This document shows, piece after piece, positions 8,234-34,627 of a stretch of 64,000 nt of DNA. The stretch is taken from NCBI GenBank assembly GCA_018661775.1, contig JABJHO010000014.1:42305-106304 (forward strand). Direction: 5' to 3'. Positions within the stretch are counted from its first letter, which is position 1, and every line of letters starts with the position of its first letter. Under the pieces are notes generated by a model. The model worked only from the letters and a program-made list of their open reading frames with translations, did not search any database and was not told the origin of the DNA. The position numbers were made by a program, and so were the translations under genes. This DNA comes from Candidatus Magasanikiibacteriota bacterium. GTDB taxonomy: Bacteria; Patescibacteriota; Patescibacteriia; Magasanikbacterales; UBA922.

Positions 8234-9356
8234 GTAATACGACCATTGCGTGGATAATCCAAAAACGCATCACTGTTTTTTCTTCACTCCAACCGCGCAT
8301 TTCAAAATGGTGATGTAGTGGTGCCATTGCAAAAATACGTCTTCCCAATATGTATCGCCCAAAAATTTGTATAATGACACTGGCAAGTTCTACATAAAAA
8401 ATAAAACCAAGCAGCGGAAGAAGTAGCATGTGATTAATGACAATGGTGTTTATGGCAAGAAGTGACCCAAGACCAAGAGAGCCAACATCACCCATTTGGA
8501 ACCGCGCAGGCTTAATATTGAAATACGTGTACGTAAGCAACGCACCGGTTGTGGTCGCATTGAGTATGGCAATTTCTCCATATCCTTCTATCCAGCTTAA
8601 TATTGTGAGAGCAGAAAATGTAATAATGAGTGCTCCTCCTGCCAATCCATCCATACCGTCTGCCATATTTACTGCATTGGCAGTTGCCACGACAAAGAAT
8701 ATAACAAAGGGAATAATAAGCCAGCTAATGTCTATTGTTCCATCAAACGGAATGGCTATGTTTTGCCAATGCTTTCCAAGTTTTGCATAAATCCACCAGG
8801 CAGCAATGCCACCCGCAATACATTCAGTGAGTAATCTTTCGTGAACATGGAGCCCTTTTCCTGGATGTGAACCCAGCCAAAGTGACGTACGTTTAAAAAT
8901 TGACCACGGAAGGGTAATAATAAGCCAGATTCTATACCATATATTTTTGTGTACCTTAATGAGTGTAAAAATCTGCTTCAATTTTCTGTTTCGTCGTTTT
9001 TTCTCATTAAAAATATTGAGCCAGTCATCTACGCCACCAAGGATTGCCGAAAGAATCATAACCCCAACAGGTACCCAGGTAAAACTTCTCTCCCAGTTAA
9101 AGAGTATGGTAATAACCGCAACAGTTATAATGACGAGCAGTCCACCCATAATTGGTACGCCAGCTTTACTTTTTCGTGCGCCCATGGCAAGTGATGCGTC
9201 ATAATCTGGGTTTCTTACAATATTATGTTTATACAAAAAAGCAATCAGGAGTGGAGCCCAAATAAAAGATGCTATTGTGGCAAGTGCGCCAAAACCTATG
9301 GCGGTCTGTAATATGTGTATTGTGTCTGTAGGTATTATCATAATACTGTTCATCAT
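8208..9356 (-). CDS. mraY: phospho-N-acetylmuramoyl-pentapeptide transferase
   Basis: 382 aa polytopic membrane protein with NAVNMADGMDGLAGG and APLHHHFE MraY signatures. Confidence 0.85.
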   Translation of the reverse strand: MMNSIMIIPTDTIHILQTAIGFGALATIASFIWAPLLIAFLYKHNIVRNPDYDASLAMGARKSKAGVPIMGGLLVIITVAVITILFNWERSFTWVPVGVMILSAILGGVDDWLNIFNEKKRRNRKLKQIFTLIKVHKNIWYRIWLIITLPWSIFKRTSLWLGSHPGKGLHVHERLLTECIAGGIAAWWIYAKLGKHWQNIAIPFDGTIDISWLIIPFVIFFVVATANAVNMADGMDGLAGGALIITFSALTILSWIEGYGEIAILNATTTGALLTYTYFNIKPARFQMGDVGSLGLGSLLAINTIVINHMLLLPLLGFIFYVELASVIIQIFGRYILGRRIFAMAPLHHHFEMRGWSEEKTVMRFWIIHAMVVLLGLWIALQ

Positions 9357-9399
9357 AGCATAGAATACATACTATTTCAAGCTATGGGCTAAATATTTT

Positions 9400-10176
9400 T
9401 TATGTTATTAATCTGCGAATTTCTAAGATTTTTGCGCTTTTTGCACGGCCAAATGTTTCATTTGCTTCACCTATTTTTTCATGCTCTTGCCAGGTCTGCT
9501 GTGATAGATCTTTTTTTGTGTCTGTAACGGTAATGTTTCCCTGTCTAATACCATGATTGTATTTTCCATCTGCAAGCCACGCAAGACTGTGTGTATAATG
9601 AATTATTTTCGGTGCACCACCTTCGTAGTCTACTTGGTGCACAATAAGTATATGGTCAAGATCATGTCGTTTTCCTGTATCAAGCATAATAATGCAATCT
9701 CCAGGTTCTATAGTGTTAAGAGAGATCGTTTGGCTGTTTTTGTTGTCTGCCAAAACACGTACATTTGTATTTTCAATGGTGCGGAATTTTCTCACAAGCC
9801 GTCTCAATAGATTGTTGGTTTTTGGAAATGACAAACGTGTGTGCAATGGTTTTGTTGTTTGTGCAATCGTTTGGGCGTTGAGAATGTAATACGCAAGCCC
9901 CGAGCAGTCAATACCAATAGCATGATCTACAAGAAATTTTTTTACCTCTGTCTGAGAAAGTGTCGTAAGGTCAATATGTTTTTTTCTTGCAATAATTTCT
10001 ATTTCTTGCACAATATCTTCTACGGAACCTTTTCCTAAGTGCACACGCAAACCTGCCCGAACCTTTGTCTTTTTATTGTTCATGTACGGGCAAGCAACTG
10101 TGTGTTTTCCAATGGGCATGTGCAGATATGCTTCAATAATATCCATTGCTGGTTTCACTATTTTTTTTGTTGTCAT
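9400..10176 (-). CDS. cytoplasmic NlpC/P60-like (papain-fold Cys/His) hydrolase candidate
   Basis: 258 aa, no signal peptide. GIDCSGLAYYIL matches the NlpC/P60 catalytic Cys motif, and a downstream DHILIVHQV region supplies a candidate catalytic His. Confidence 0.4.
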   Translation of the reverse strand: MTTKKIVKPAMDIIEAYLHMPIGKHTVACPYMNNKKTKVRAGLRVHLGKGSVEDIVQEIEIIARKKHIDLTTLSQTEVKKFLVDHAIGIDCSGLAYYILNAQTIAQTTKPLHTRLSFPKTNNLLRRLVRKFRTIENTNVRVLADNKNSQTISLNTIEPGDCIIMLDTGKRHDLDHILIVHQVDYEGGAPKIIHYTHSLAWLADGKYNHGIRQGNITVTDTKKDLSQQTWQEHEKIGEANETFGRAKSAKILEIRRLIT

Positions 10177-15817: not shown

Positions 15818-17854
15818 ATGAACAATCAAGAAGGGACAAAGCGCGTAAGAATGCGTTGGGGAATGGTAAGTATTACTATTTGTTTTTTGGCTATGCTCGG
15901 GTTTATATTCCCGAAGTATACAAATGTTGCTATTAACAATATTAATTCTTTGGCATATCTAGGATTACCAAACATATCGGAAGAGTCTTTTCGGTTGGGT
16001 CTAGATTTGCAAGGCGGTGCACATTTAATATATGAGGCAGACGTACAACACGTGGCAATCGAAGATCGTGCAACTGCAGTAGAAGGTGTGCGAGATGCGG
16101 TTGAGCGCCGAGTAAACGGGACGGGAGTTTCTGAACCAAATGTCCAAACAGCGCGTGTGGGTGAGGCATATAGGCTTATTGTTGATCTTCCAGGTATTGA
16201 AAATGTAAATGAAGCAATAAAACTTATAGGGGAGACACCGGTGCTAGAATTTAAGGAAGAAAATGATGTACCATCAAGGGAGCTTAATGAAGAAGAGAGA
16301 GAGTTAATAACACAAACAAATAGTACAGCAAAATCACGTTCAGAGGAGATAGCAGCCCGAGTGGCAGGTGGTGAGTCTTTTGAAGAGCTTGTTTCTGAGC
16401 TTTCTGAAGACACGATCACAAAAAATAATGGAGGGAGTTTGGGAAATGTTGAGGCAGGTCTGAGTATAACAGGCCCACTTTATGATTGGGCGAAGACTCA
16501 TGTGGATGGGGACATTTCTGAAACACCAATAGAAACAGAGCTGGGATATCACGTTGTAAAGCGCGGGAAAGATGGTGAGTCAAAAGAAAAAGTTTCAGCG
16601 AGCCATATACTAATCTGTTATTTTGGTGCACAGGGTTGTGAAGATGAAACATACACAAAAGAGTCGGCACTAGAAAAAGCACAAGAACTTTTTACTCAAG
16701 CAAATGCTGAAAATTTTGCTGATTTAGCAAAAGAATTTTCTACTGGACCAAGTAAGGGTGCGGGTGGGGACCTTGGTTCTTTTGGGCGCGGTATGATGAT
16801 ACCTGCGTTTGAAGAGGTAGTGTTTTCTGCAGAAGTGGGACAAATTGTAGGGCCAGTTGAAACTGATTTTGGGTATCATGTGATTTATAAGACCGATGTG
16901 GAGGAGGTTGCAACGTATGGCCTTGCTCATATTATGAGTAAAAAGCTAACAGAAAGAGAAGTTCTCCCACCGCAGGATTCATGGAAATCAACAGAGCTTT
17001 CCGGAAAACAACTTGAGCGGGCGGACGTTGCTATTGATCCGCAAACAGGTGCCGTACAAGTTTCTCTTGTTTTTGATAAGGAAGGAAAAAAACTATTTGA
17101 AGATATTACACGAAGAAACCTTAATAAACCTGTTGCAATCTTTTTAGATGGCTCTCCTATTAGTATACCAACAGTTCAGGCCGTCATCGGTGGAGGGGAG
17201 GCGGTGATTACTGGATCATTTACCATTCCAGAAGCAAAACTTTTATCTCAAAGACTTAATACGGGTGCATTACCTGTTCCTATTACTCTTGTATCCCAGC
17301 AGGCTATTGGTGCAAGTTTGGGGGCCGAATCACTGGTAAAGAGTTTGCATGCCGGAATAATTGCTATTATATTGGTAATGCTCTTTATGGTTCTGTATTA
17401 TAGATTACCAGGGGTACTGGCAGTTATTTCTTTAAGCATATATATTGTTGCTGCACTTGCTATTTTTAAATTAATAGGCGTGACATTGACACTAGCTGGA
17501 ATTGCTGGATTTATCCTCTCTATTGGTATGGCGGTTGATGCAAATGTACTGATTTTTGAAAGAATGAAGGAGGAGCTGCGCGAAGGGAAGAGTTTGAAAG
17601 TTGCGGTGGAAGAAGGGTTTGTGCGTGCGTGGACATCTATACGAGATGGAAATATTTCAACACTTATTACCTGTGTATTGTTGGTTGGGTTTGGTGCAAG
17701 TTTTGTTCAGGGGTTTGCTGCAACATTGTCAATTGGTATTTTATTGAGCATGTTTTCGGCGATTACCATTACACGATTGTTTTTGCGTGCAATAGTGCCA
17801 CTATTTTCTCGGTACGGCAATAGACTCTTTTTAGGATTTACTGAAAAAAAATAA
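15818..17854 (+). CDS. secD: protein-export membrane protein SecD with inserted tandem parvulin-type PPIase domains
   Basis: LGLDLQGG P1-domain start. Canonical P1 head (AIFLDG...ISIPTV...ITGSF) and six-TM C-terminus. Residues ~150-345 carry two parvulin signatures (GGSLG...ELGYHVV and SHILI...GGDLGSFGRGMMIPAFEEVVF...FGYHVIYK). Confidence 0.9.
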   Translation: MNNQEGTKRVRMRWGMVSITICFLAMLGFIFPKYTNVAINNINSLAYLGLPNISEESFRLGLDLQGGAHLIYEADVQHVAIEDRATAVEGVRDAVERRVNGTGVSEPNVQTARVGEAYRLIVDLPGIENVNEAIKLIGETPVLEFKEENDVPSRELNEEERELITQTNSTAKSRSEEIAARVAGGESFEELVSELSEDTITKNNGGSLGNVEAGLSITGPLYDWAKTHVDGDISETPIETELGYHVVKRGKDGESKEKVSASHILICYFGAQGCEDETYTKESALEKAQELFTQANAENFADLAKEFSTGPSKGAGGDLGSFGRGMMIPAFEEVVFSAEVGQIVGPVETDFGYHVIYKTDVEEVATYGLAHIMSKKLTEREVLPPQDSWKSTELSGKQLERADVAIDPQTGAVQVSLVFDKEGKKLFEDITRRNLNKPVAIFLDGSPISIPTVQAVIGGGEAVITGSFTIPEAKLLSQRLNTGALPVPITLVSQQAIGASLGAESLVKSLHAGIIAIILVMLFMVLYYRLPGVLAVISLSIYIVAALAIFKLIGVTLTLAGIAGFILSIGMAVDANVLIFERMKEELREGKSLKVAVEEGFVRAWTSIRDGNISTLITCVLLVGFGASFVQGFAATLSIGILLSMFSAITITRLFLRAIVPLFSRYGNRLFLGFTEKK

Positions 17855-18852: not shown

Positions 18853-19014
18853 ATGACAGACAATTTTATTCGTCATCTTATAGCATTTCTTGTGGTGCTT
18901 ATTTGTCTTATTATTTTTAGTGTTGGATATATGTCCGGAATACGAGGTTGGTGGTTTTCTGGCTTTACTCTTTTGTTTGTGTACATAATTATCTACAAAC
19001 TTGTTGATGTGTAA
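18853..19014 (+). CDS. possible small two-TM membrane protein (53 aa)
   Basis: ATG ORF MTDNFIRHLIAFLVVLICLIIFSVGYMSGIRGWWFSGFTLLFVYIIIYKLVDV in the secF-downstream gap. Below tool cutoff. Confidence 0.25.
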   Translation: MTDNFIRHLIAFLVVLICLIIFSVGYMSGIRGWWFSGFTLLFVYIIIYKLVDV

Positions 19015-19015
19015 T

Positions 19016-20434
19016 ATGGAAGTAGTCCCTTTATTAAACATATCATCTATTCTAGGAGCCATAGGCAGTAATCCTATGGAAGTTTTTGTGTCAATATTTA
19101 TTTTTTTTGGATACGCCATACTATTTTATACTTTGTGCAAGGCAGTGCTTGAACTATATGTAGATTATAGGCAAAAAAAAAATACACAATCTTGGAATTT
19201 TGTTGTTTTGGCAATAGATATTCCTCCAATGAATATTCAAACCCCAAAAGCGGTTGAACAATTGTTTGCGCATTTGGCGGGTATTTTTAGTAAGCCAAAT
19301 ATTGCTGCAAAATTCCGTGGTGGCCATGTACAGAGGTCTTTTAGTTTTGAAATAGTGAGTATTGACGGATATATACAATTTCTTGTGCATACAGAAGAAG
19401 AGTACAGGGAACTTGTTGAGGCTGCGCTCTATGCGCAATACCCTAACGCTGAAATTACACAAGTAGAAGATTATGTGCAGAAGATTCCAGATAGGTATCC
19501 TCATGAAGAATATGATATTTGGGCTACAGATATTGGATTGGCCGAACACAGTGCATATCCAATTCGGATGTATTCTGATTTTGAACACAAAAACTCGGAA
19601 GAAGAGGTGTTAAAAGATCCAATGAGTGCTTTGCTCGAGAGCTTTTCTCGCATAGGGTCTGGTGAACAGATCTGGTTGCAAATAATAGTAGAGCCAATAT
19701 CGAGTAAGTGGAAAGAAGATGTTATCGAAAAAATCAATGAAGTGTTGGGTAATGTTTCGGTTTCCGGGGCTGGGCCAGGTTCACGTTTTTTTTCCTCTAT
19801 TTCAACAATAATAGGGCAGTTGTTTTTTCATATTTTTGGAGGAGAAGAGACTGCCACTTCGGCTGATACCAGGTCAGAGATATCTTCAGGTTTGTCTCCA
19901 GGCGTCTCTAATGCTGTTCAAGGCATGGAAGAAAAAATGACAAAGGTTGGTTTAAAAACTAACATGCGTGCGGTGTATATAGGAAGAAAGGATAACTTTT
20001 CACCTCAGCGTGGTATCAATGCACTTTTAGGGTCTTTGAATCAGTTTAGTATACCCACAGCCAATGCTATTGTTCCTACGTATGGTGTTTCAACATCATA
20101 TTTTAAGGCAGAAAAGCGTAGTAACCAGAAAAAGAATGTATTAATGGAGCATTATAAAAAAAGAAAAATCAGTATTAAAAAAGGACCCAAACCATATATT
20201 TTAAATGTTGAGGAGCTTGCAAGTATTTGGCATTTCCCACTTTCACATGTAAAAACACCGCTATTACAGGTTGTGGCCTCAAAACCTTCTGAACCACCAG
20301 TTGGTTTGCCAATAGAAATGAGCAGTGGTATGGGTGGTTCTTCACAGGGAGTCGATCTTTCTGGTGTTTTTCTCCCTAAGGAGGGTGAACCAGATGCATA
20401 TAGTGGGCCACCGCCAAACCTACCTTTTGGGTAG
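19016..20434 (+). CDS. hypothetical protein, N-terminal TM helix, C-terminal Gly/Pro-rich tail
   Basis: 472 aa ORF with good coding periodicity. No recognisable motif. Start taken at ATG 19016 (MEVVPLL). Confidence 0.5.
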   Translation: MEVVPLLNISSILGAIGSNPMEVFVSIFIFFGYAILFYTLCKAVLELYVDYRQKKNTQSWNFVVLAIDIPPMNIQTPKAVEQLFAHLAGIFSKPNIAAKFRGGHVQRSFSFEIVSIDGYIQFLVHTEEEYRELVEAALYAQYPNAEITQVEDYVQKIPDRYPHEEYDIWATDIGLAEHSAYPIRMYSDFEHKNSEEEVLKDPMSALLESFSRIGSGEQIWLQIIVEPISSKWKEDVIEKINEVLGNVSVSGAGPGSRFFSSISTIIGQLFFHIFGGEETATSADTRSEISSGLSPGVSNAVQGMEEKMTKVGLKTNMRAVYIGRKDNFSPQRGINALLGSLNQFSIPTANAIVPTYGVSTSYFKAEKRSNQKKNVLMEHYKKRKISIKKGPKPYILNVEELASIWHFPLSHVKTPLLQVVASKPSEPPVGLPIEMSSGMGGSSQGVDLSGVFLPKEGEPDAYSGPPPNLPFG

Positions 20435-20502
20435 TGTTTTTCACAGAAGTGTATAGTGTGAAAAGAAAACCTTGATTTTTTCTTTGTTTTACGATATTGT
20501 AG

Positions 20503-21501
20503 GTGGATATGTGGATACATGACATAGTACATAAAAACAAGAAAATCTACGCGCTTTCGCCAATGGCAGACATGACTGATTCTGCTTTTTGTCAAATTGT
20601 TCGCCAAATTGGTGGGGCTGATGTTGTGTTTCGTGAAATGGTGAGTAGTGAGGCTATTGTACGAGATAACGAGAAAACACTCGGTATGACTGATTTTGTA
20701 GAGGTCGAGAGACCTATTGTTCAGCAAATATTTGGTGCTGACCCACTGACTATGGCGCGTGCTGCGGCAAAGGTTATGGAACATGCTAGCCCAGAAGGGA
20801 TAGATATAAATATGGGGTGTCCGGTATATAAAATCACATCAAATTTTAATGGGTGTGCATTAATGAAAGACCCTGGTTTGGCAAAAAAAATAGTAAAAGA
20901 AGTAAAATCAGCGATTGGGGATACGCCACTAAGTGTCAAAATTCGACTCGGTTGGAATGATCCAGATACATATAAAACCTTTATTCCAATAATCGAACAA
21001 GCTGGCGCGCAGCTTATTACTCTTCATGGGAGAACAAAAGCACAGGGATATAGTGGGGTAAGTGATTGGTCTCGTATCGCTGACGCAAAACAGATAGCAA
21101 CAGTACCACTTTTGGCAAATGGTGATATTCATGCACCGCATCAAGTAAAAGAAGTGTTAGGTCAAACTGATGCAGACGGTGTTCTAATCGCTCGTGGGGC
21201 CTTGGGCAATCCTTGGTTCTTTTATTTGGCAAAAGCATATCCAGATGATGTGACAGCGATACAGCGTATTACTACCGAAGAGCGCATAGACGTAATGAGG
21301 GCTCATGCGCAAAAACACGTAGAACAGTATGGAGAAAAAGGTATTATGACATTTAGAAAACATCTTTCTTGGTATGTGAAATCACAGAAAATTGGTGTAA
21401 TCATTCCAGGAATAAAAGAATGGCGTGGTAAGTTAGTTCGAGTTACCTCCCTCAAGGAGTTAGATGTATTATTAGAAGAGTTTAGAGGTTTACTCGCATA
21501 G
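20503..21501 (+). CDS. dus: tRNA-dihydrouridine synthase
   Basis: LSPMADMTD(S/L)(A/P)F N-terminus, TIM-barrel FMN-binding regions, conserved Cys (NMGCP). Confidence 0.85.
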   Translation: MDMWIHDIVHKNKKIYALSPMADMTDSAFCQIVRQIGGADVVFREMVSSEAIVRDNEKTLGMTDFVEVERPIVQQIFGADPLTMARAAAKVMEHASPEGIDINMGCPVYKITSNFNGCALMKDPGLAKKIVKEVKSAIGDTPLSVKIRLGWNDPDTYKTFIPIIEQAGAQLITLHGRTKAQGYSGVSDWSRIADAKQIATVPLLANGDIHAPHQVKEVLGQTDADGVLIARGALGNPWFFYLAKAYPDDVTAIQRITTEERIDVMRAHAQKHVEQYGEKGIMTFRKHLSWYVKSQKIGVIIPGIKEWRGKLVRVTSLKELDVLLEEFRGLLA

Positions 21502-21547
21502 CCCACATTTGCCTTTGTGCAAGATTTACGGTATTCTGACAATATAA

Positions 21548-23347
21548 TTGAGATCTATGAGTGATACACAAATGATAAAAGATAAACTGGATATTGTTGA
21601 TGTGATAGGGGAGTATGTTCAACTGAAGCCAGCTGGCACAAGCCGTAAAGGTTTGTGTCCATTTCATAATGAAAAATCACCATCTTTTACTGTAAGTCGT
21701 GACAGGCAAGCATGGTATTGTTTCGGATGTGCTACCGGTGGTGATATTTTTTCATTTATTCAGGAAATAGAGGGGATGGAGTTTTTAGAGGCGCTAAAGC
21801 ACTTGGCTAACCAGGCAGGTGTTACACTTTCTACTGGGTACAACAAAGAGGTCGGTGGTAAGCGGGCTCGGATAAAAGAGGTGCTACTTGAGGCAGCAAG
21901 ATTTTTTCACAATTTTCTTTTGGTTATGGATGGGGCACAAGAGGCACGAACCTATATCTCGCAAAGAGGTGTAGATGAAAAAACACTTATAGAGTGGCAT
22001 GTTGGGTATATTCCTGATCAGTGGGATCTTCTCACAAAGTATTTACTGAATAAGGGGTATGGAATAGATGATCTTGTGGATGCTGGGCTTACTGTAAAAA
22101 GAGAGGGTGGTGCGTATACGAGTGGTAAGGGTTTTTATGATCGTTTTCGTGGTCGGATTATGTTTCCTATTCATGGTACACATGGAGAGGTTGTTGGGTT
22201 TACTGGGAGGGTGATAAAAAGTCCGAAAGAGGGTGTTGGGAAGTATCTCAACACTCCACAAACGGCGGTATTTGATAAGTCAGCAGTTATTTTTGGGTTA
22301 CATAAAGCAAAGAAGGCTATTAAAGAGGCGGGTTTGGCTGTGCTGGTTGAGGGGCAGATGGATGTAATTACTGCTCATCAGCATGGCATGTATAATGTGG
22401 TTGCTTCAAGCGGTACGGCACTCACAGCTGAGCAGATTACTTTATTAAAACGGTATACATCAAAAATAGCCATGGCATTTGACTCTGATGAGGCGGGAAA
22501 AAAAGCAGCTAAACGTGGTATAGACTTAGCCATAACTCAAGGTCTTGATGTTCGTATTATTCAAATTCCAGAAGATATGGGTTCTGATCCAGACGACTGT
22601 ATTCGGCGGGATTCTGATGTCTGGAATCAAGTGGTTGTACAGGCAAAAGATGTAATGGATTGGTATTTTTCAGAGGCATTTTTGACAGGTGGCGTAGATA
22701 CTCCAAAAGAACGACAAGCTATAGCAAACTCACTTCTTTGTGAGATTCAGCGAATACCATTTGCCATGGAACGTGATCATTGGATTAATGTGTTGGCTGA
22801 TAAATTAGTCGTAGATCCGAAAATTCTTCGTGAGGATATGAAAAAATATACGAACACTACTGAGTCGGTGTCAAAAACAGTAGAGGTGGTTGAGAAAAAA
22901 GAAGCTATTTTACCAAAATCCTCTCGTATCGATACACTGGTTGAAACACTGCTTTTGCTTGGCATCTTGTATCCCAAGTTGTGGTATAGTCACGTACAAC
23001 CATTTTTTGGTAGTTTTTCTGCTCTTTCTACATACGGCCCCCTTTACGATTCTTTGAATGTTTGCTATAATATATCTAAAATTACAACCACAGATGCACT
23101 TCTGTTGTTAGTTCAAAAACCAGAGATACAAACACAGGTTGACATGCTCCTTATAAAAGGGGAGGTGGATTTTCCTGGGATTACCGAAGTAGATGCATTA
23201 AAGGAAGAAGAGGTCTTCTATAAACAGTTGGTTGTTGCATGTAAAAAGCTCGAGAGAGAGGTATTACAAAAGCAGATAGTTGCAGCAGAACAGAGAGGTG
23301 ATAGTGGGCAGGTAACCGCCCTTATAAAGGATTTTCAAAATATTTAG
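21548..23347 (+). CDS. dnaG: DNA primase
   Basis: Zinc-binding CPFHNEKSPSF...CFGCATGGD, TOPRIM region (EGQMDVI). Confidence 0.9.
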   Translation: MRSMSDTQMIKDKLDIVDVIGEYVQLKPAGTSRKGLCPFHNEKSPSFTVSRDRQAWYCFGCATGGDIFSFIQEIEGMEFLEALKHLANQAGVTLSTGYNKEVGGKRARIKEVLLEAARFFHNFLLVMDGAQEARTYISQRGVDEKTLIEWHVGYIPDQWDLLTKYLLNKGYGIDDLVDAGLTVKREGGAYTSGKGFYDRFRGRIMFPIHGTHGEVVGFTGRVIKSPKEGVGKYLNTPQTAVFDKSAVIFGLHKAKKAIKEAGLAVLVEGQMDVITAHQHGMYNVVASSGTALTAEQITLLKRYTSKIAMAFDSDEAGKKAAKRGIDLAITQGLDVRIIQIPEDMGSDPDDCIRRDSDVWNQVVVQAKDVMDWYFSEAFLTGGVDTPKERQAIANSLLCEIQRIPFAMERDHWINVLADKLVVDPKILREDMKKYTNTTESVSKTVEVVEKKEAILPKSSRIDTLVETLLLLGILYPKLWYSHVQPFFGSFSALSTYGPLYDSLNVCYNISKITTTDALLLLVQKPEIQTQVDMLLIKGEVDFPGITEVDALKEEEVFYKQLVVACKKLEREVLQKQIVAAEQRGDSGQVTALIKDFQNI

Positions 23348-23360
23348 TATAATTTGTTGA

Positions 23361-24668
23361 ATGGCAAAAACAACATCTACAATTAAGAAACGTGTCACAA
23401 AAAAACGTGTCACAAAAAAAAATACAGTAGTTAAAAAAACTACCAAAAAAAGTACCGGTGCTGCAAACAAAAAAATAACAGCACAAAAAACTTCAAAAAA
23501 AAATGTCACTAAGACACCAAAGGGGATAAAAAAAACAGATCAACCAAAATTTAAAGAAAAGATAATGCCACCGTCATTGGAGGATATTACTACACTTATA
23601 AATCGCGGAAGAGGGAGAAACTTTTTAACCGAAAGAGAGATTTTTGTGTGCTTTCCTAGATTAGAAAAATATATCGACATGTTCGAGCTGTTTTTGGATT
23701 TGGTTGACAAAAATAATGTTTCGATAGTAGAGCACCAACAGAGTAATTTATTAGGACATAAAGAAAAAAGAGCAGAGTTGCTTCAAACATTTCACGGACA
23801 GCAACCTGATGTAGAGGCGGGTACTTTTGATTTAGCAAATATTTTTCAAGACAACATACAAATGTATTTACGAGAAATCGGAAAGATTCCACTTCTTTCT
23901 GCTCAAGAAGAAGTATTGTTGGCAAAAAGAAAAGAGCGAGGTGATAAAGCGGCAGAACAAAAAATGATAGAAGCTAATTTGCGTCTTGTTGTATCTATTG
24001 CAAAAAAGTTTGTTGGTAAGCAACTTACACTACTTGATTTAATACAAGAGGGGAACATTGGATTGTTTCGTGCGGTGCGTAAATTTGATTTTAGAAGGGG
24101 GTATAAATTTTCTACCTATGCCACATGGTGGATTCGTCAAGCAATCACAAGAGCTCTTGCAGATCAATCACGGACGATTCGTATTCCGGTACACATGGTT
24201 GAAACAATTAACCGATTTAAACAAGTTCAGAGACGGTTGTTGCAAGATTTAGGGCGCGACCCAACCCCAGAAGAGATGGCAGCAGAAATGGGTGAACAAA
24301 TTCACAAAATACATCATATTATAAAGATTTCTCAAGATACAGTTTCTCTAGAAACATCTGTTGGAGACGAAGATGATGACTCACCCTTGTCTGATTTTAT
24401 TGAAGACGTAAAGAATATAAGCCCTTCACAGGCTGCTGGTATAGAATTGTTGCGTGAGTATATTTCACATGCAATATCACAACTTTTACCACGTGAGCAG
24501 AAGATTTTACAAATGCGCTTTGGTCTTGAGGATGGTATTACACACACCCTAGAGGAGGTGGGGAAGGAGTTTGATGTGACACGTGAAAGAATACGCCAAA
24601 TTGAAGCAAAAGCACTCGAAAAAATAAAACACTTTGATATCATAGAAAAATTACGAGATTTTTCTTAA
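23361..24668 (+). CDS. rpoD: RNA polymerase sigma-70 factor with Lys-rich N-terminal extension
   Basis: Regions 1.2-4 present ([35 protein letters not shown]). N-terminal KKRVTKK repeats. Confidence 0.9.
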
Positions 24669-24781
24669 CATTACTATGTCCACAGTGTGAAGGTTTGTTA
24701 TAGGTGGTTAGCAAGAAATGTGGTATACTGTGTAAAGAAGAGGTGTGTATTTTATTATTGAATACAGGGTAATAAAAAAAT

Positions 24782-25918
24782 ATGGGGGTTTTTCAAAAAC
24801 AGGAGGCATATCTAGGGGTAGATCTTGGTGCACATGGCATCAAGGTGGTTGAACTTAAAAAAGTAAAAAATAGGCCACACATCTGGACATATGGTTTGTT
24901 AAATAAAAAACTAGATGTGCATGCGCCGCAAAGAAAACACAAAAAAGCTGTGAAGTATTTTGATTATGAACAAAAAGATACCAATCAAGAGGATGAAAAG
25001 GGTGTGGATAAGGTGTTTCAGGATGAGCGTGTTGAAGTCTATGCATCTCTACTAAAGAAGGTGCTAAAAGATGCACGAGTAACAGCCAATCGTGCAACTG
25101 CAAGTCTTCCTGTTTCTGAGATATTTCATACGCTTATTACACTGCCAAAAGTAGACAAGAAGGATTTAAAACACCATGTACACGCAAAAGTAAAAAAACT
25201 CCTTCCACTTCCTATAGATGAGATGCAAATTGTGTTCCAAATATTTCCTGACCCAGAAGAAAAACGAGATTATTTACAAATACTTGTCACGGCGGCACCA
25301 AAATCTCTTGTCATACTGTATAGTAAAATTTTTCAAAAAGCTGGAATTATTCTTGATGAGCTTGAGACGGAAGCATTTGCATTGGAGCGGGCCTTGGTTG
25401 GGCGAGATAGCGCGACTTCTTTGGTTATAGACATGGGGAGTGAAAGATCAAATTTCTTTGTCATAAAAAATAGCCTTCCCATTACACATAGAAGTATTAA
25501 AATAGGAGGAAATAACTTTGATGCGCATCTTGCGCAAGTGTTGGGAGTGTCACAGGATCACGCAGAACAGATAAAAATTGATTTAGCGAGTGGTACTGTG
25601 GATAGGCGTATTGAAAGTTCCTTGTTTAGTGCGCTGCTTGAACCAGTGGTGAAAGAGATACAATATAGTATTGATGTATACAAAAGTCAGGTCCGAGATA
25701 ATTCGACAGATCGTGGGATAGAAAAGATTATATTAACCGGTGGGGTAGCGTTTTTTCCACCATTTATGGATTACTTAAAACAAAAATTTCCATTAACAGT
25801 GTTTATTGGTGACCCATGGGCTCGCGTGGTGTATCAACAGGGTCTAAAGAATGTATTAGATAATTTGGGCCCAAGAATGGCAGTAAGTGTGGGGTTGGCA
25901 ATGCGTAACCTTGTGTAA
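24782..25918 (+). CDS. pilM: type IV pilus assembly ATPase-fold protein PilM
   Basis: Actin-like fold motifs: LGVDLGAHGIKVVEL, IKIGGNNF, AEQIK, ILTGGVA. 378 aa. Confidence 0.7.
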   Translation: MGVFQKQEAYLGVDLGAHGIKVVELKKVKNRPHIWTYGLLNKKLDVHAPQRKHKKAVKYFDYEQKDTNQEDEKGVDKVFQDERVEVYASLLKKVLKDARVTANRATASLPVSEIFHTLITLPKVDKKDLKHHVHAKVKKLLPLPIDEMQIVFQIFPDPEEKRDYLQILVTAAPKSLVILYSKIFQKAGIILDELETEAFALERALVGRDSATSLVIDMGSERSNFFVIKNSLPITHRSIKIGGNNFDAHLAQVLGVSQDHAEQIKIDLASGTVDRRIESSLFSALLEPVVKEIQYSIDVYKSQVRDNSTDRGIEKIILTGGVAFFPPFMDYLKQKFPLTVFIGDPWARVVYQQGLKNVLDNLGPRMAVSVGLAMRNLV

Positions 25919-25964
25919 TTTTTGTAATAGTATATACTATATATATAAATGCTAACTTTGTTTT

Positions 25965-26345
25965 ATGGTAGAAAAAAGTATACATATATTGCTTATAGAA
26001 GATGATACGTTTTTAGCAAACATTTACAAAACAAAATTTGAAATGGAAGGTTTTGTGGTAGATGTGGCAGAAAATGGTGAACTAGGACTAAAGGAGGTTC
26101 AAAAAAGGCAGCCAGACCTTGTGTTGCTTGATATTTTACTACCAAAGATGGATGGGTTTACGGTTTTACAACACATGAAAGAAGATGCTGAGTTAAAAAA
26201 CATTCCTGTTATTCTCTTAACCAATCTTGGTCAAAAAGATGATGTAGAAAAAGGTTTGAAGCTTGGTGCTGCAGATTATCTGATTAAAGCACATTTCAAA
26301 CCATCAGAAACAGTTGATAAGGTAAAAAGTGTTTTAGGTATATAG
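25965..26345 (+). CDS. single-domain response regulator (CheY-like receiver)
   Basis: ILLIEDD, LVLLDILLPKMDG (phospho-acceptor Asp), ILLT, K at ~105. 126 aa. Confidence 0.75.
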   Translation: MVEKSIHILLIEDDTFLANIYKTKFEMEGFVVDVAENGELGLKEVQKRQPDLVLLDILLPKMDGFTVLQHMKEDAELKNIPVILLTNLGQKDDVEKGLKLGAADYLIKAHFKPSETVDKVKSVLGI

Positions 26346-26396
26346 TTACTGTTCTTTTTTGCATATGAATTACACAAGGAGGGGGGTGAGTATGAC

Positions 26397-26825
26397 ATGA
26401 ATAAAAAAGGTTTTACACTTATTGAATTGCTCGTTGTCGTTGCAATTATTGGACTACTTTCAACACTTGCGGTTGTAGCTCTTTCTACAGCAAGAGAGAA
26501 GACGAGAGATTCAAAGCGTTTATCTGATTTGAAAAATATCCAAACAGCCCTAGAATTACATTATACAGGAAGCAACCAGTATCCAGTTGCACAAGTTGCC
26601 GTTGATCTAGGGGCAGGAGATTTTGCCTGTTTAAATGGTGATGGTTTTGGTGCAGTAGGGTGTGCTACTCCGTTCTTAGAAGTAGTTCCATCTGGCCCAA
26701 ATGCGGCTGAGGTATACACATATACATCAGATGACGGTACCGCTTTTGCTGTTGTTGCAACACTAGAAGGAGAGCTTGGTGGTTTGAGTGGAGATGTTAC
26801 AGCATCACAGTCGGGTATCAATTAA
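26397..26825 (+). CDS. type IV pilin (prepilin, N-methylation motif)
   Basis: MNKKGFTLIELLVVVAIIGLLS class-III signal peptide. Strong AAGGAGG RBS upstream. Confidence 0.8.
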   Translation: MNKKGFTLIELLVVVAIIGLLSTLAVVALSTAREKTRDSKRLSDLKNIQTALELHYTGSNQYPVAQVAVDLGAGDFACLNGDGFGAVGCATPFLEVVPSGPNAAEVYTYTSDDGTAFAVVATLEGELGGLSGDVTASQSGIN

Positions 26826-26840
26826 TTTTTTTGAAAAAAT

Positions 26841-26877
26841 AAAAAACAAACACGAGATATTTGTGTTTGTTTTTTTA
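26841..26877. terminator. bidirectional rho-independent terminator between convergent pilin and repeat-protein genes
   Basis: 9-bp stem AACAAACAC/GTGTTTGTT flanked by A-run and T-run. Confidence 0.5.
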
Positions 26878-26915
26878 ATTCATGCTGAAGTGTGGATATT
26901 TGTGTATAGCTTATT

Positions 26916-28082
26916 TTATTCTTTATACACTATATTTAGGTGTGAATATTTTTGCTCCATAATGACCAAATCTTCTTCTGAAAATTTATTTCTATCAATC
27001 AGTACTTTGCCCGTAACAATATCAGGTAGAACTAGCCCATCTGTTGTCGTGAGACCCAAGAGTATGAGATCGCCATCGATTGTTTTTGGAAAAGTAACAC
27101 CTTCTGCTGATTTAAGTTCCCATGTTACTATACTTCCTATGATGGTTTCAGGTAATAGTATGTTGGTGGCTTTCTCTAGGTTGAAAAGATGTATACTTCC
27201 TATTAAGGTTTTTGGAAATTGCACAGTATGTGCTGTCTTGAGTCGATCCATAGAAATGAGCCCATTAACACCGTCTTGTGGAAATACTACATTATGAACT
27301 GACTCAAGACCAATTAAGTTTAACTTACCATGTACTGTTTTGGGAAATTCTAGTCCATCTATTTCAGTGAGTGAAGACATACAAAGACTACCATTAACAG
27401 TTTCGGGTAGTACTAACTTTTCTGTGGAAAGGAGGTAGAATAGCAGAAGATCGCCATGTATTATTTTTGGGAGCGTAAGTGTTTTTGCAGATGTTACTTG
27501 TAGTTGAAGGTCACCATTTACTATTTCTGGACATGTTATCCTTTTGTCTTCATCAATGCGTTCGGGACTAAGGTTGCCATAGTGGTATTTTATTTTACCT
27601 TTCAAAATGGTATTTTCTAAAAAGTTTTTATTTTTGGTTTCTGTGTAAGAGCTTATCTGATCCTCTGTGAAACCAGTAAGTCGAGATATATCCTCTTTAA
27701 AATTATGGATGTCTATAGGAAAATTACGATATGTAGTATCAAGACTAAACGGACCTTTGCCTTCTTTAAAACCCGTCACACCCCCGCTGTTGTTGTATAT
27801 TATGTGTAAATCATTTATTGGTGTGTCTTTAGTAATTCTATCACCATTAATTTTTTTCTTTATTTCTTGAATACGTTGTGTTTTTTTTGCCACTTTCTCC
27901 CATCTTTTTAGTTTAAGTCGTAAGAATGAAGATGTATTAAATACCTGCTCTATGTTTCTTTTTCGTTCTCGTATATTTTCGATATCACCACCTGATTCAA
28001 TAAGAGTCTTAAATTCTTCTAATTTTAGGTTTTGCATTGCTTTTAGCATTTTTTTTATGTCTCTACACTCTTCTTGAGCCAT
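26916..28082 (-). CDS. cytoplasmic repeat protein with nine ~21-residue leucine-rich-type repeats (LPxT(V/I)xGxLxLxxLxxxxxLx)
   Basis: 388 aa. Charged coiled-coil-like N-terminus, then nine tandem degenerate repeats (LPETVNGSL..., FPKTVHGKL..., FPKTLIGSI..., LPETIIGSI..., FPKTIDGDL...). Confidence 0.6.
   Translation of the reverse strand: MAQEECRDIKKMLKAMQNLKLEEFKTLIESGGDIENIRERKRNIEQVFNTSSFLRLKLKRWEKVAKKTQRIQEIKKKINGDRITKDTPINDLHIIYNNSGGVTGFKEGKGPFSLDTTYRNFPIDIHNFKEDISRLTGFTEDQISSYTETKNKNFLENTILKGKIKYHYGNLSPERIDEDKRITCPEIVNGDLQLQVTSAKTLTLPKIIHGDLLLFYLLSTEKLVLPETVNGSLCMSSLTEIDGLEFPKTVHGKLNLIGLESVHNVVFPQDGVNGLISMDRLKTAHTVQFPKTLIGSIHLFNLEKATNILLPETIIGSIVTWELKSAEGVTFPKTIDGDLILLGLTTTDGLVLPDIVTGKVLIDRNKFSEEDLVIMEQKYSHLNIVYKE
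26958..27506 (-). repeat. coding tandem repeat array (~63 nt period, 9 copies) inside repeat protein
   Basis: Periodicity seen in translated sequence. DNA copies are degenerate. Confidence 0.5.
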
Positions 28083-28209
28083 ATATTTTTTGTTATATTA
28101 CAATAGTATATCATTTTTTTTGATCTATTCACACTCTGTTTCTTTGTGGCCATGTTTATTTCTTTTTCTCTATTTTCCTGCTATACTCGATATATACTAC
28201 TCATAATTA

Positions 28210-31013
<2,804 letters not shown>

Positions 31014-31073
31014 TTGTATTTGCTAAATACCCCAAAATACCATACAATATACTTATTCTATATACAAAACAGT

Positions 31074-31373
31074 ATGAGCATTTCAAGGTCCGACGTTGAA
31101 CATGTGGCAAAACTTGCACGAATACACTTGTCAGAAAGTGAAAAAGAATACTATGCAGAACAGCTATCTGCAATTTTTGGATATATTGATCAATTGAATG
31201 AAGTGGATACGACGCAGGTTGAAGGAACAGTACAAGTCACAGGTTTGTCTAATATCGCGCGAGAAGACACGGTGGTGGAGTGTTCGCAAGATGTGGTACA
31301 GGATATACAGAATCAGTTTCCACAAAAATCCTGTGATTTATTACAAGTAAAACAGATACTTTCTGACACATAA
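31074..31373 (+). CDS. gatC: Asp/Glu-tRNA amidotransferase subunit C
   Basis: MSISRSDVEHVAKLARIHLSESE...QLNEVDT typical GatC. Tool ORF begins at 31014. Confidence 0.8.
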   Translation: MSISRSDVEHVAKLARIHLSESEKEYYAEQLSAIFGYIDQLNEVDTTQVEGTVQVTGLSNIAREDTVVECSQDVVQDIQNQFPQKSCDLLQVKQILSDT

Positions 31374-31377
31374 GTTT

Positions 31378-32808
31378 ATGGAATTACACACATTATCAAT
31401 TGCCGAAGCAAGAAAAGGTTTGGATGACAAACAGTTTTCTTCTGTTGAGCTGACACAGGCGTGTTTGGAAAGAATTGCACAAAGAAATGATGAGATTAAT
31501 GCATTTATTACGGTTACCGAAGAGTTGGCACTTACAGAAGCACAAAAGGCTGACACAAGAATTGCACAAGGGGAGGTAGAAATGCTTACCGGTATTCCGT
31601 TTGGTGTAAAGGATGCTATTTGTGTGCAGGGGGTTCGTACTACTGGTGCAGCCAAGATTTTGGATAATTATACCGCGCCATATGAGGCAACCGTTATCAC
31701 GAGGATAAGAAAACAAGGTGCGGTACTTTTGGGAAAACAAAATTGTGATGGTTTTAGTCATGGGGCAAGCAATGAAAACTCCATGTATGGTCCGGTAAAA
31801 AATCCAATAGACACCACAAAAGTACCTGGTGGTTCTTCTGGTGGTTCAGCAGCTGCTGTTGCAGACAATCAATGCATATTTTCTATCGGAGGAGACACTG
31901 GCGGGTCCATTCGTCAGCCAGCAAGTTTGTGTGGTGTGGTTGGGATGAGACCAAGTTATGGGAGAAATTCTCGATATGGCATTATGGCTTTGGCAAGTTC
32001 TTTGGATGTAATAGGTCCTCTCACAAAAACGGTAGAAGATGCTGCGTTGCTTATGGAAATTATGGCTGGACATGACCCAAAAGATGCCACAACGGTGGTA
32101 GACCATATTCCTGACTATAGTAAAAAAAGTCAAACAGATGTTGCTGGCTTGAAGATAGGAGTGCCAAAAGAGTATTTTTCACAAGATGGTGTAGACCAAG
32201 AAGTGCAAGAACGTATATACCAAAATATAAAGTCATTAGAAAAGCAGGGGTGTACTGTAGTAGAAGTTTCTCTTCCACACACACGATACGCAATTGCAGC
32301 GTATTATGTTCTTATGTCTTCTGAGGACAGCTCAAATTTAGCACGGCTCGATGGTGTTCGGTATGGTGTGCGAGAGGCGCAAGATACGCTGTATAATACG
32401 TATAGCAACTCAAGAGCCGAAGGGTTTCCAGAAGAGGTAAAGCGTAGGATTATGATGGGAACGTATGTGCTGTCTGCTGGATACTATGAAGCGTATTACA
32501 AAAAAGCACAAAAAGTACGGACACTTATTGCACAGGATTTTGAGACTGTGTTCTCGCAAGTTGATGTACTTATTTCCGCAACCTCGCCATTTACTGCATT
32601 TGGGATTGGGGAAAAGTCACAAGATCCCCTTAGCATGTATCTTGCTGATGTTTTAGTGAGTCCAGCCTCTCTTGCTGGTGTGCCAGCACTATCTGTTCCA
32701 GTGGGTACTGCGAGTAATGGCTTACCGATTGGCTTGCAGGTGATCGGACCACGCCTTGGTGAGAGTTGTGTGTTGCAGGTTGGAAATAGTATTTTTAATA
32801 ACCAATAA
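31378..32808 (+). CDS. gatA: Asp/Glu-tRNA amidotransferase subunit A (amidase)
   Basis: Amidase signature GGSSGGSAAAVA, Ser-cisSer-Lys triad regions. 476 aa. Confidence 0.9.
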   Translation: MELHTLSIAEARKGLDDKQFSSVELTQACLERIAQRNDEINAFITVTEELALTEAQKADTRIAQGEVEMLTGIPFGVKDAICVQGVRTTGAAKILDNYTAPYEATVITRIRKQGAVLLGKQNCDGFSHGASNENSMYGPVKNPIDTTKVPGGSSGGSAAAVADNQCIFSIGGDTGGSIRQPASLCGVVGMRPSYGRNSRYGIMALASSLDVIGPLTKTVEDAALLMEIMAGHDPKDATTVVDHIPDYSKKSQTDVAGLKIGVPKEYFSQDGVDQEVQERIYQNIKSLEKQGCTVVEVSLPHTRYAIAAYYVLMSSEDSSNLARLDGVRYGVREAQDTLYNTYSNSRAEGFPEEVKRRIMMGTYVLSAGYYEAYYKKAQKVRTLIAQDFETVFSQVDVLISATSPFTAFGIGEKSQDPLSMYLADVLVSPASLAGVPALSVPVGTASNGLPIGLQVIGPRLGESCVLQVGNSIFNNQ

Positions 32809-32818
32809 TAATTATCGT

Positions 32819-34228
32819 ATGAAAAAAGCTGATATACAAAAAATGGAATCACAATCAAGGCAGTCTTTTACGTATGCAACGCATGATATTCAAGATTATC
32901 GACAGTCTTGGCGGATATTTCGTATTATGGCTGAATTTGTCGAAGGCTATTCCTTTCTTTCGACGCTAAAAAATGAAATTACTATTTTTGGATCAGCACG
33001 TTTTTCTCCAGATGATCCGTATTATATTATTGCCAGAGAATTAGGAAAGATGTTGGGAGAAAAAGGGCATACCATTATTACAGGCGGTGGTCCTGGTATT
33101 ATGGAAGCAGCAAATCGTGGGGCGCATGACGCTGGTGCAGAGTCTGTGGGGCTAAACATACAATTACCTTTTGAGCAGATACTCAATGCACATACAACCA
33201 AATCTGCATCATTTAATTATTTTTTTACACGCAAAGTAATGTTAACTTCACCTGCGACAGCATTTGTGTGTTTTCCTGGTGGTTTTGGTACAATGGATGA
33301 ATTTTTTGAGGTGGTAGATTTGTGTGAGCTTGGCATGATGCAGTCCGTGCCAATTGTCTTAGTTGGAAGTTCATACTGGAACCCACTTTTGGAATTTCTT
33401 CGAAAGAGTTGTTGCGCTACAGGTTCTATTACAGAAGAACAAATAGATAAAATACATGTTGTTGACACGGCAGAAGAAGCATATATATTGTTACAGGATG
33501 TTGAAGATCGGCCACATGACCCAAACATGGTATTGCATCAGTTTAGCCAAGATGGCAATATAGAGTGGAAGGTATTTAGGATAATGGCAGAACTGGTAGA
33601 AGGGTTTGAGTTTTTGGTAAACATGAAAGAAGATATTACGGTACTTGGAACAAAACACATACCAAAAGATTCGCATTATTATTCTGATGCAGAAAAACTT
33701 GGTAAACAGCTTGTTGATCACGGTTTTTCTGTGGTTACCGGTGGAAAATACGGTATTGCAGAGGCAGTAAACAAAGGTGCATATGAAGCGGGTGGTGCGT
33801 CATACGGACTTGGTATGGATGTTGGTGGGCATAGGGAGCTTAACCCATATCTTACGCAGTCAATGTTATTTCGTTTTGCGTTTACAAGAAAGCTTATTGT
33901 TACGGCACCATCGAAAGGGTTTGTATTTTTCCCAGGTGGGTTTAGTACGCTTCATCAGTTATTTGAAGTGCTTACACTTATTCAAACAAAGAAAATGGCA
34001 AAACGACCTATTATATTATACGACAGAGAATTTTGGCAACCATTGCATGAGTTTATTAAAACAACTATGGTGCATGACGTTGGGACAGTGTCGGATGAAG
34101 ACGATGAGTTGTATCAAATCGTAGACAGTGTGGAGGCTATACATAAAATACTTGGCGAGGCACCCGAAGAGTCAAAACAGTTTACGATGCATTGGGATGA
34201 CGAAACTGCAGCGCACTATAAGCAGTAA
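32819..34228 (+). CDS. tandem LOG-family (TIGR00730, cytokinin riboside 5'-monophosphate phosphoribohydrolase-like) protein
   Basis: Two Rossmann LOG modules: GGGPGIMEA...PGGFGTMDEFFEV and a degenerate second GGKYGIAEA...PGGFSTLHQLFEV. Start at ATG 32819. Confidence 0.7.
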   Translation: MKKADIQKMESQSRQSFTYATHDIQDYRQSWRIFRIMAEFVEGYSFLSTLKNEITIFGSARFSPDDPYYIIARELGKMLGEKGHTIITGGGPGIMEAANRGAHDAGAESVGLNIQLPFEQILNAHTTKSASFNYFFTRKVMLTSPATAFVCFPGGFGTMDEFFEVVDLCELGMMQSVPIVLVGSSYWNPLLEFLRKSCCATGSITEEQIDKIHVVDTAEEAYILLQDVEDRPHDPNMVLHQFSQDGNIEWKVFRIMAELVEGFEFLVNMKEDITVLGTKHIPKDSHYYSDAEKLGKQLVDHGFSVVTGGKYGIAEAVNKGAYEAGGASYGLGMDVGGHRELNPYLTQSMLFRFAFTRKLIVTAPSKGFVFFPGGFSTLHQLFEVLTLIQTKKMAKRPIILYDREFWQPLHEFIKTTMVHDVGTVSDEDDELYQIVDSVEAIHKILGEAPEESKQFTMHWDDETAAHYKQ

Positions 34229-34280
34229 TGAGTATTATTTTGACAGTTACATGATATTTTGTTATTGTGTGACTACTTAT

Positions 34281-34370
34281 GGAGAGATGGCAGAGTGGTC
34301 GAATGCGCAGCCTTGGAAAGGCTGTGTACGAGCAATCGTACCGCGGGTTCGAATCCCGCTCTCTCCGCCA
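34281..34370 (+). tRNA. tRNA-Ser (anticodon GGA), class II with long variable arm, CCA encoded
   Basis: Acceptor GGAGAGA/TCTCTCC, anticodon loop TTGGAAA, T-arm GCGGGTTCGAATCCCGC, ends GCCA. Confidence 0.8.
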
Positions 34371-34378
34371 ATATAAAA

Positions 34379-34466
34379 GGAGAGGTGCCGGAGTGGTTGA
34401 ACGGGGCGCTCTCGAAAAGCGTTGTCCGGTTTTCTCGGACCGCGGGTTCGAATCCCGCCCTCTCCG
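34379..34466 (+). tRNA. tRNA-Ser (anticodon CGA), class II with long variable arm, no encoded CCA
   Basis: Acceptor GGAGAGG/CCTCTCC, anticodon loop CTCGAAA, identical T-arm to upstream tRNA. Confidence 0.75.
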
Positions 34467-34627
34467 CGAATATACAAGAGGTTATGCGGTTTCGCTTCGT
34501 TTCACCCAAATTTTCACACACAGTGGTAAGTCCTTTTTAATTTTTTTTGGGAAATAAAAAACCGCCTCAACCTTTTTTGGTATGTTGGCGGTAAGTAGTT
34601 GGTTTGCTTAGTTCTAGCCTAGCAAAC

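Follow-up and report, generated by a model that had tools for sequence, protein, structure and literature searches.

What is a gene for a free-standing leucine-rich repeat (LRR) protein doing between the pilin gene and pilD of a CPR bacterium? The question is raised by a 64,000-nucleotide stretch of DNA from Candidatus Magasanikiibacteriota (hereafter, the window), for which a preliminary description, made from the letters alone, had proposed a cytoplasmic protein with nine 21-residue repeats that could serve either as a scaffold or adaptor for pilus regulation or as a host-interaction effector. The immediate neighbours of the LRR gene are the following.

24782-25918, plus strand: PilM
25965-26345, plus strand: REC-only response regulator
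26397-26825, plus strand: prepilin (the pilin gene)
26841..26875, no strand: hairpin with a perfect 13-bp stem, flanked by A/T runs on either side, in the spacer where the pilin and LRR genes converge
28210-28989, plus strand: PilD

This context agrees with the one first described: the LRR and pilin genes converge on the shared hairpin, a probable bidirectional terminator, the LRR gene and pilD diverge, and both pilM and the gene for the CheY-like REC protein lie within 2 kb. Since it lies on the other strand and beyond the hairpin that terminates the pilin gene, the LRR gene is not transcribed together with the pil genes. Scans for promoter and terminator consensus sequences gave no useful signal. 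The four-gene pilus mini-cluster is set among housekeeping genes, with SecA, SecDF, Dus, DnaG and RpoD upstream and LigA, GatCA and LOG downstream. There is no pilB, pilC or pilT among the ORFs scanned in the window and, general pilus genes aside, no secretion-system gene next to the LRR gene.

Several other genes of the window are of interest in their own right. The SecD homolog (15818-17854, plus strand) combines SecD P1 domains with a peptidyl-prolyl isomerase (rotamase) domain of the PpiC type (residues 253-360), a predicted translocon-chaperone fusion of an unusual kind. A DUF8128 protein of 468-477 aa with an N-terminal membrane segment (19001-20434, plus strand), located between SecF and Dus, is kept in the lineage. 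Two LOG/SLOG ('lysine decarboxylase-like') domains are arranged in tandem in one protein of 470-490 aa (32756-34228, plus strand), followed by a pair of tRNA-Ser genes with GGA and CGA anticodons at 34281-34467, and a single ORF of 789 aa (44885-47254, plus strand) encodes a glucose-6-phosphate dehydrogenase (N- and C-domains) fused with 6-phosphogluconate dehydrogenase domains.

The LRR gene was confirmed as a 388-aa ORF on the minus strand, and its product can be divided into four parts.

26916..28082, minus strand: whole ORF, 388 aa, GenBank 'hypothetical protein HOL80_00975' (MBT4941681.1), from a Candidatus Magasanikbacteria MAG (GCA_018658985.1)
27915..28082, minus strand: residues 1-56, lineage-specific N-terminus, 38% D, E, K and R, helix predicted with low confidence
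27537..27914, minus strand: residues 57-182, homolog of the family helical linker/cap, ending in 'GKIKYHYGNL'
26967..27536, minus strand: residues 183-372, nine LRR-like units of 20-22 residues
26916..26966, minus strand: residues 373-388 and the stop codon, short C-terminal tail, modelled as helix and strand

An N-terminal extension is ruled out by an in-frame stop five codons 5' of the ATG. The charged N-terminus of the preliminary description is real; the coiled coil assigned to it is not established, given that residues 1-78 are predicted to be helical but with pLDDT below 50 in the single-sequence model, and that residues 57-182 are the conserved helical linker of the family discussed below, not a coiled coil. 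Charge and hydropathy bear out the reported lack of a signal peptide: in a Kyte-Doolittle scan, no signal peptide or transmembrane (TM) segment was found, the best 19-residue mean being 1.47 and the N-terminal 10-mers reaching at most 0.32, and the protein contains no lipobox, sortase motif or prepilin leader. Searches of Pfam, NCBIfam, PHROGs, PADLOC and PDB sequences with this protein gave no match; a weak match to MHC_I_3 (E = 0.18) was disregarded.

The repeats are strongly supported by self-comparison. Nine tandem units span residues 184-372, seven of them 21 aa long, the first 20 aa and the fifth 22 aa, following the pattern [LF]-P-x-[TI]-[VI]-x-G-x-[LI]-x-[LM]-x-x-L-x5-[LV]-x, with Pro2 and Gly7 (numbered within the unit) in 9/9 units. 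The BLOSUM62 autocorrelation over residues 181-375, with 500 shuffles as the reference, peaks at lag 21 (z = 9.6), with further signals at lags 42 (z = 6.4) and 64 (z = 4.9), so that the proposed nine repeats stand. At the DNA level, a single 28-nt pair with 82% identity is left: the repeat units are old and diverged.

The assignment of these repeats to a fold is less direct. Tandem units of 20-30 residues with a regular hydrophobic pattern, as in the LRR superfamily, are present; the canonical LxxLxLxxN/CxL motif with its Asn/Cys ladder is not, and the comparison with LRR families drew a blank, with no match of the protein to curated Pfam LRR profiles even at E <= 10 and none of 50 family members to these models at E <= 0.01. 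The profiles miss these repeats because of an atypical consensus, in which Leu14, found in 85% of the family units, takes the place of the ladder Asn and the Pro2 and Gly7 turns are kept. Structure prediction, also suggested in the preliminary description, was favourable in part: the single-sequence AlphaFold model reaches pLDDT of 70-90 in the repeats and stays under 50 in the remainder, but Foldseek against the PDB returned nothing below E = 0.87 for this model. Left-handed beta-helix matches of the model were rejected as weak (TM-scores < 0.2). A solenoid superimposable on solved LRR structures was obtained, chiefly through the model of a homolog; because the protein's own model matches right-handed beta-helices as well and yields no significant Foldseek match, the LRR assignment rests mainly on that homolog. 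We conclude that the repeats are of the leucine-rich type, as the first reading had it, and that they fold into a solenoid which belongs to the short bacterial LRR class and has an atypical consensus. The half-repeat 'GKIKYHYGNL' opens the solenoid, and the C-terminal tail may cap it.

The provenance of the protein became clear from its relatives. A word-indexed homology search returned only four, one of them a 93%-identical ortholog with the same synteny and the other three proteins of 598-658 aa with 28-36% identity. An exhaustive HMMER search with the profile of these five sequences retrieved 2,960 representatives of clusters at 50% identity with E <= 1e-3, including 1,390 with E <= 1e-30, and a second profile search 3,441 proteins at E <= 1e-10. 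In the GTDB species-representative set, which does not include the source species, the protein detected only a single full-length relative, a distant one from a MAG labelled Gammaproteobacteria. All named members are 'hypothetical protein' entries, for example, MDD2548243.1 (Candidatus Paceibacterota) and NLZ24659.1 (Candidatus Dojkabacteria); those labelled in our analysis carry the numbers P0002-P0299.

The members of this family are usually 550-1,100 aa long and consist of three parts. The N-domain, the most conserved region, comprises about 330 aa with an invariant Trp-Cys (TGWCTA) and the motifs GDFYVYY, PRIAIRM and EIRG. The helical linker has the signature ELRFLYEID..GFGY..DPRI. The LRR array consists of 3-24 units, near-identical to one another in some members, with the consensus L-P-[EK]-x-[IV]-G-G-[DSN]-L-x-L-x-[SG]-L-T-S-A-E-G-L-x derived from 889 units. 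With hmmsearch, residues 57-361 of the window protein align with positions 332-625 of the 635-position A2 profile (E = 1e-54); positions 1-331, that is, the N-domain, find no match in it, residues 1-56 have no significant match to the family profile, and there is no second family ORF anywhere in the 64-kb window. By these alignments, the protein is evidently a shortened member of a large uncharacterised family, of which it has only the linker and LRR half.

A 679-aa family member on a viral contig (L095, 5782-7821) joins the Trp-Cys N-domain and the linker to an unrelated, non-LRR C-terminus, and therefore, the LRR array is an exchangeable module. Just downstream of this member (8582-9613) there is a reverse-transcriptase-like ORF with a (DRQT)n repeat. 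An N-domain core of about 88 aa (P/S-W-C-T-G ... GDFYIYYS ... EIRG ... NQ) is also embedded in giant phage proteins on IMG/VR contigs, one of 2,796 aa (L096, 1606-9996) and one of 1,692 aa (L098, 21-5099), both of which are 'large polyvalent proteins' because they carry Pfam LPD38. This distribution hints that the N-domain could be part of a phage/host conflict toolkit. A possible likeness of the N-domain to the C-terminus of PcfJ (of pCF10) is no more than a lead; hhalign gave it no support and a targeted hmmsearch was only faintly suggestive. Literature searches on PcfJ with repeats and on LRRs in Patescibacteria yielded nothing relevant. PADLOC had no matches (0) for the window protein and five family members.

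The names that databases attach to family members call for caution. Matches to Glutaredoxin2_C (PF04399) were rejected as repeat-driven artefacts, with no single stretch passing the threshold. The Glutaredoxin2_C, MoeA_C and HNH_5 matches, precomputed as well as fresh, and the JGI name 'phage protein U' (P0002, P0182-P0299) all come from near-identical 'SLTSAEGLKLPE' repeats; these Pfam and JGI names are likely annotation artefacts that will propagate. A tblastn search of plasmid and phage collections with a full-length member gave a collagen-like Priestia protein, a compositional match, and one short repeat match, and was uninformative.

Why, then, does this gene lie in a pilus locus? We compared 80 metagenomic loci (500 kb) encoding PilD relatives. 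The order PilM-REC-pilin-PilD-LigA is kept in three of them, L015, L016 and L021 (PilD 41-51% and REC 68-70% identical), and a short contig, L014, keeps the REC-pilin-PilD core (REC 93%, pilin 88% and PilD 68% identical). In each of these four loci, only 113-200 bp separate the pilin match from the PilD match, with nothing between them. Accordingly, L014 aligns by blastn to positions 25857-26875 and 28159-28928 of the window and to nothing in between, which defines the inserted segment.

26876..28158, no strand: inserted segment of 1,283 bp, absent from L014, the closest relative without the gene

The segment begins directly after the pilin terminator hairpin and contains the LRR ORF alone, with about 40 bp of non-coding DNA on its 3' side and about 76 bp on its 5' side; no target-site duplications or direct or inverted repeats were found at its borders. 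Because pilin and pilD are adjacent in related CPR contigs, the LRR gene is a lineage-specific insertion of 1.28 kb, and the simplest reading is that one Candidatus Magasanikbacteria lineage recently gained this single gene.

These comparisons bear directly on the possibility that the protein is a pilus scaffold or regulator which binds PilM, the CheY-like regulator, the prepilin or PilD and modulates the assembly of type IV pili. The gene does lie physically between pilin and pilD, with pilM and REC within 2 kb, and strains that are 93-100% identical keep it there. However, the synteny check proposed at the outset goes against such a role: the gene is missing from all the more distant relatives with conserved order (L014, L015, L016 and L021), and a family member occurs in only 1/80 PilD loci (L013, from the same species). 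The seven loci of other family members represent seven unrelated neighbourhoods, none with pilus genes (MurD/GAPDH; SpoU/RNase J; a 540-aa membrane protein and a 375-aa P-loop-like ORF; AspRS/peptidase C39; aminotransferase/sortase; unknown/RmuC; and the viral-contig locus L095). In these loci, a conserved association of the family with pili is absent. Furthermore, the protein has no homology to known Pil/Tfp components (no Pfam or NCBIfam matches), and its gene evolves in a manner quite different from that of the pilus genes, as described below. With an insertion in one lineage and no conserved co-occurrence with pil genes, the proposed scaffold or adaptor role is not supported, and we consider it very improbable. 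That the gene lies in the pilus mini-cluster is most plausibly an accident of where it inserted, even if the insertion on its own may be compatible with a newly acquired role alongside the flanking pilus genes.

The fate of the gene after its arrival can be gauged from closely related strains. In a pairwise comparison with the 94.8%-identical strain L001, the dN/dS of the LRR gene is 0.52-0.57, about 5-10 times that of PilM, REC and pilin; eleven of the twelve neighbours have values of 0.02-0.12, and PilD, with very few changes, 0.31. The LRR gene differs from its counterpart in L001 by 12 synonymous and 28 non-synonymous codon differences. Since neutrality is not rejected (p = 0.15), any ongoing functional constraint in the lineage is putative. 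The dS values against L001 form a mosaic across 18904-34494 of the window, with 0.17-0.38 from the DUF8128 gene to the pilin gene, 0.02-0.10 over the stretch that comprises the LRR gene, PilD, LigA and GatC, 0.25 in GatA and 0.04 in LOG, which suggests recent recombination or a local sweep that would have included the inserted LRR gene.

The dN/dS of the LRR gene would fit a decaying remnant, namely, a 5'-truncated fragment that was brought in by recombination and stays open by chance, having no function. Along with a dN/dS of about 0.5 that is not significantly below 1, this explanation draws on the loss of the most conserved family domain, the restriction to a single lineage and a GC content slightly below that of the adjoining genes (0.342 vs about 0.39). 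Decay would, however, hardly have left Pro2, Gly7 and the hydrophobic core in 9/9 units when identity to the nearest full-length relatives has dropped to about 35%; because the nine units keep their fold-determining residues despite this divergence, long-term selection has probably acted on the fold. Eleven population variants, with 48 variable sites, are all 388 aa long without stops or frameshifts, although truncated predictions would not have clustered with them. Among these variants, the linker is the most conserved part, with 0.06 variable sites per residue vs 0.14 for the N-terminus and 0.15 for the LRR, and the changes at core positions are conservative. We therefore regard a remnant as unlikely.

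Within the LRR, 21 of the 29 variable sites are non-core, especially at repeat phases 10, 12, 13 and 18, which flank the L-x-L-x-x-L strand, and 8 are core. This recent pattern would fit a relaxation of constraint as well as diversifying selection that acts on the exposed face. Positions 10 and 12 are unusually hydrophobic or aromatic in the window copy (L/F, H/F, V/W, I/L) vs D, N, S or Y in the family, which is compatible with a protein-protein interface.

Rapid change at exposed repeat positions, together with the raised dN/dS, would also be expected of an exported LRR adhesin or effector with which an episymbiotic CPR cell engages its host or phages in an arms race, leaving the cell by a non-classical route. 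The best-known short-type bacterial LRR proteins (IpaH, SspH1, YopM, internalins and FlrP) are indeed host-directed or extracytoplasmic, and the range of 3-24 repeats across the family, with some near-identical arrays, is as expected of fast-evolving recognition surfaces. Signal peptides of the Sec type are found in about 18% of the top 150 family members (27/150, among them P0008, P0009, P0014, P0016 and P0035), directly before the conserved 'FLH..N..LH.S' start of the N-domain and often followed by Cys. The family is thus not uniformly cytoplasmic, and appears to act on either side of the membrane depending on the lineage. But most CPR and Firmicute members, like the window protein, carry no signal peptide, lipobox, TM segment, sortase motif or prepilin leader, and no secretion-system gene adjoins the LRR gene besides the general pilus genes. 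Hence the early suggestion of a host-interaction effector gains something from fast evolution, from analogy and from the family-wide signal peptides, and is weakened by the absence of one in the window copy; we rate an exported factor as rather unlikely.

The probable explanation, in our judgement, is that the protein is a soluble, cytoplasmic, free-standing LRR module, a derivative of the family without its N-domain that was placed at the pilus cluster by chance insertion. Under this scenario, a single gene of 1.28 kb would have entered, on the opposite strand, the small gap that separates pilD from the pilin terminator; the N-domain would have been lost, and the target-recognition half of the two-domain family kept. 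Like other stand-alone LRR proteins, the module would bind a partner protein via the solvent-exposed x positions around L-x-L-x-x-L. Because it contains no enzymatic domain, it would serve as an adaptor or a regulator, or else compete for, or act as a decoy of, the ligand that full-length family members bind. A more specific version, which we deem quite improbable, is that of a domesticated LRR-only offshoot of a conflict-type family that serves as a decoy or sensor of a fast-evolving phage or host-cell protein at the pole or pilus of an episymbiotic CPR cell; if true, it would account both for the faster change at exposed positions and for fixation beside the pilin gene.

Given that its position reflects a lineage-specific insertion, annotation of the gene as a pilus component is unwarranted. 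The window copy is a minor, lineage-restricted protein, and the family behind it is more interesting: some 3,000 clusters at 50% identity from CPR bacteria, Firmicutes and diderm MAGs, without a Pfam, NCBIfam, PHROG or PADLOC model, in which an atypical 21-residue LRR that escapes current LRR profiles is joined to a conserved Trp-Cys domain. Defining this family would clear thousands of 'hypothetical protein' labels as well as spurious 'Glutaredoxin2_C' and 'phage protein U' calls, and could point to a new recognition or effector system.

Among the known systems, the TpLRR/BspA-like (Pfam LRR_5) and FNIP repeats have units of 23 and 22 residues, respectively, with second halves that differ from those of the window repeats, and neither LRR_5 nor FNIP matches the window protein even at E <= 10. 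The effectors IpaH, SspH1 and SlrP, which carry an NEL E3-ligase domain, and YopM share the short 'bacterial' class of LRR; the family consensus differs from that of the IpaH/YopM class in the Leu that replaces the ladder Asn, the G-G turn and the T-S-A-E-G-L segment. Unlike the NEL effectors, the window protein has no C-terminal NEL domain with a catalytic Cys, stopping 16 residues past the LRR without a Pfam or PDB match, and the family has the reversed domain order, with neither a T3SS nor a eukaryotic host involved. FlrP (PDB 8z5u chain 0; bioRxiv 10.64898/2025.12.04.692373) is a stand-alone LRR protein that attaches, in Vibrio, to the rod of the polar flagellar motor. It is periplasmic and has a Sec signal peptide, whereas the window protein has none; there is no detectable sequence homology between the two, and FlrP lacks the family linker and belongs to an unrelated context and organism. 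Compared with the Trp-Cys/linker/LRR family itself, the window protein has an unrelated charged N-terminus of 56 residues instead of the N-domain of about 330 aa, and shares with it the homologous linker and LRR, the 21-residue unit and the 'HYGNL' entry motif.
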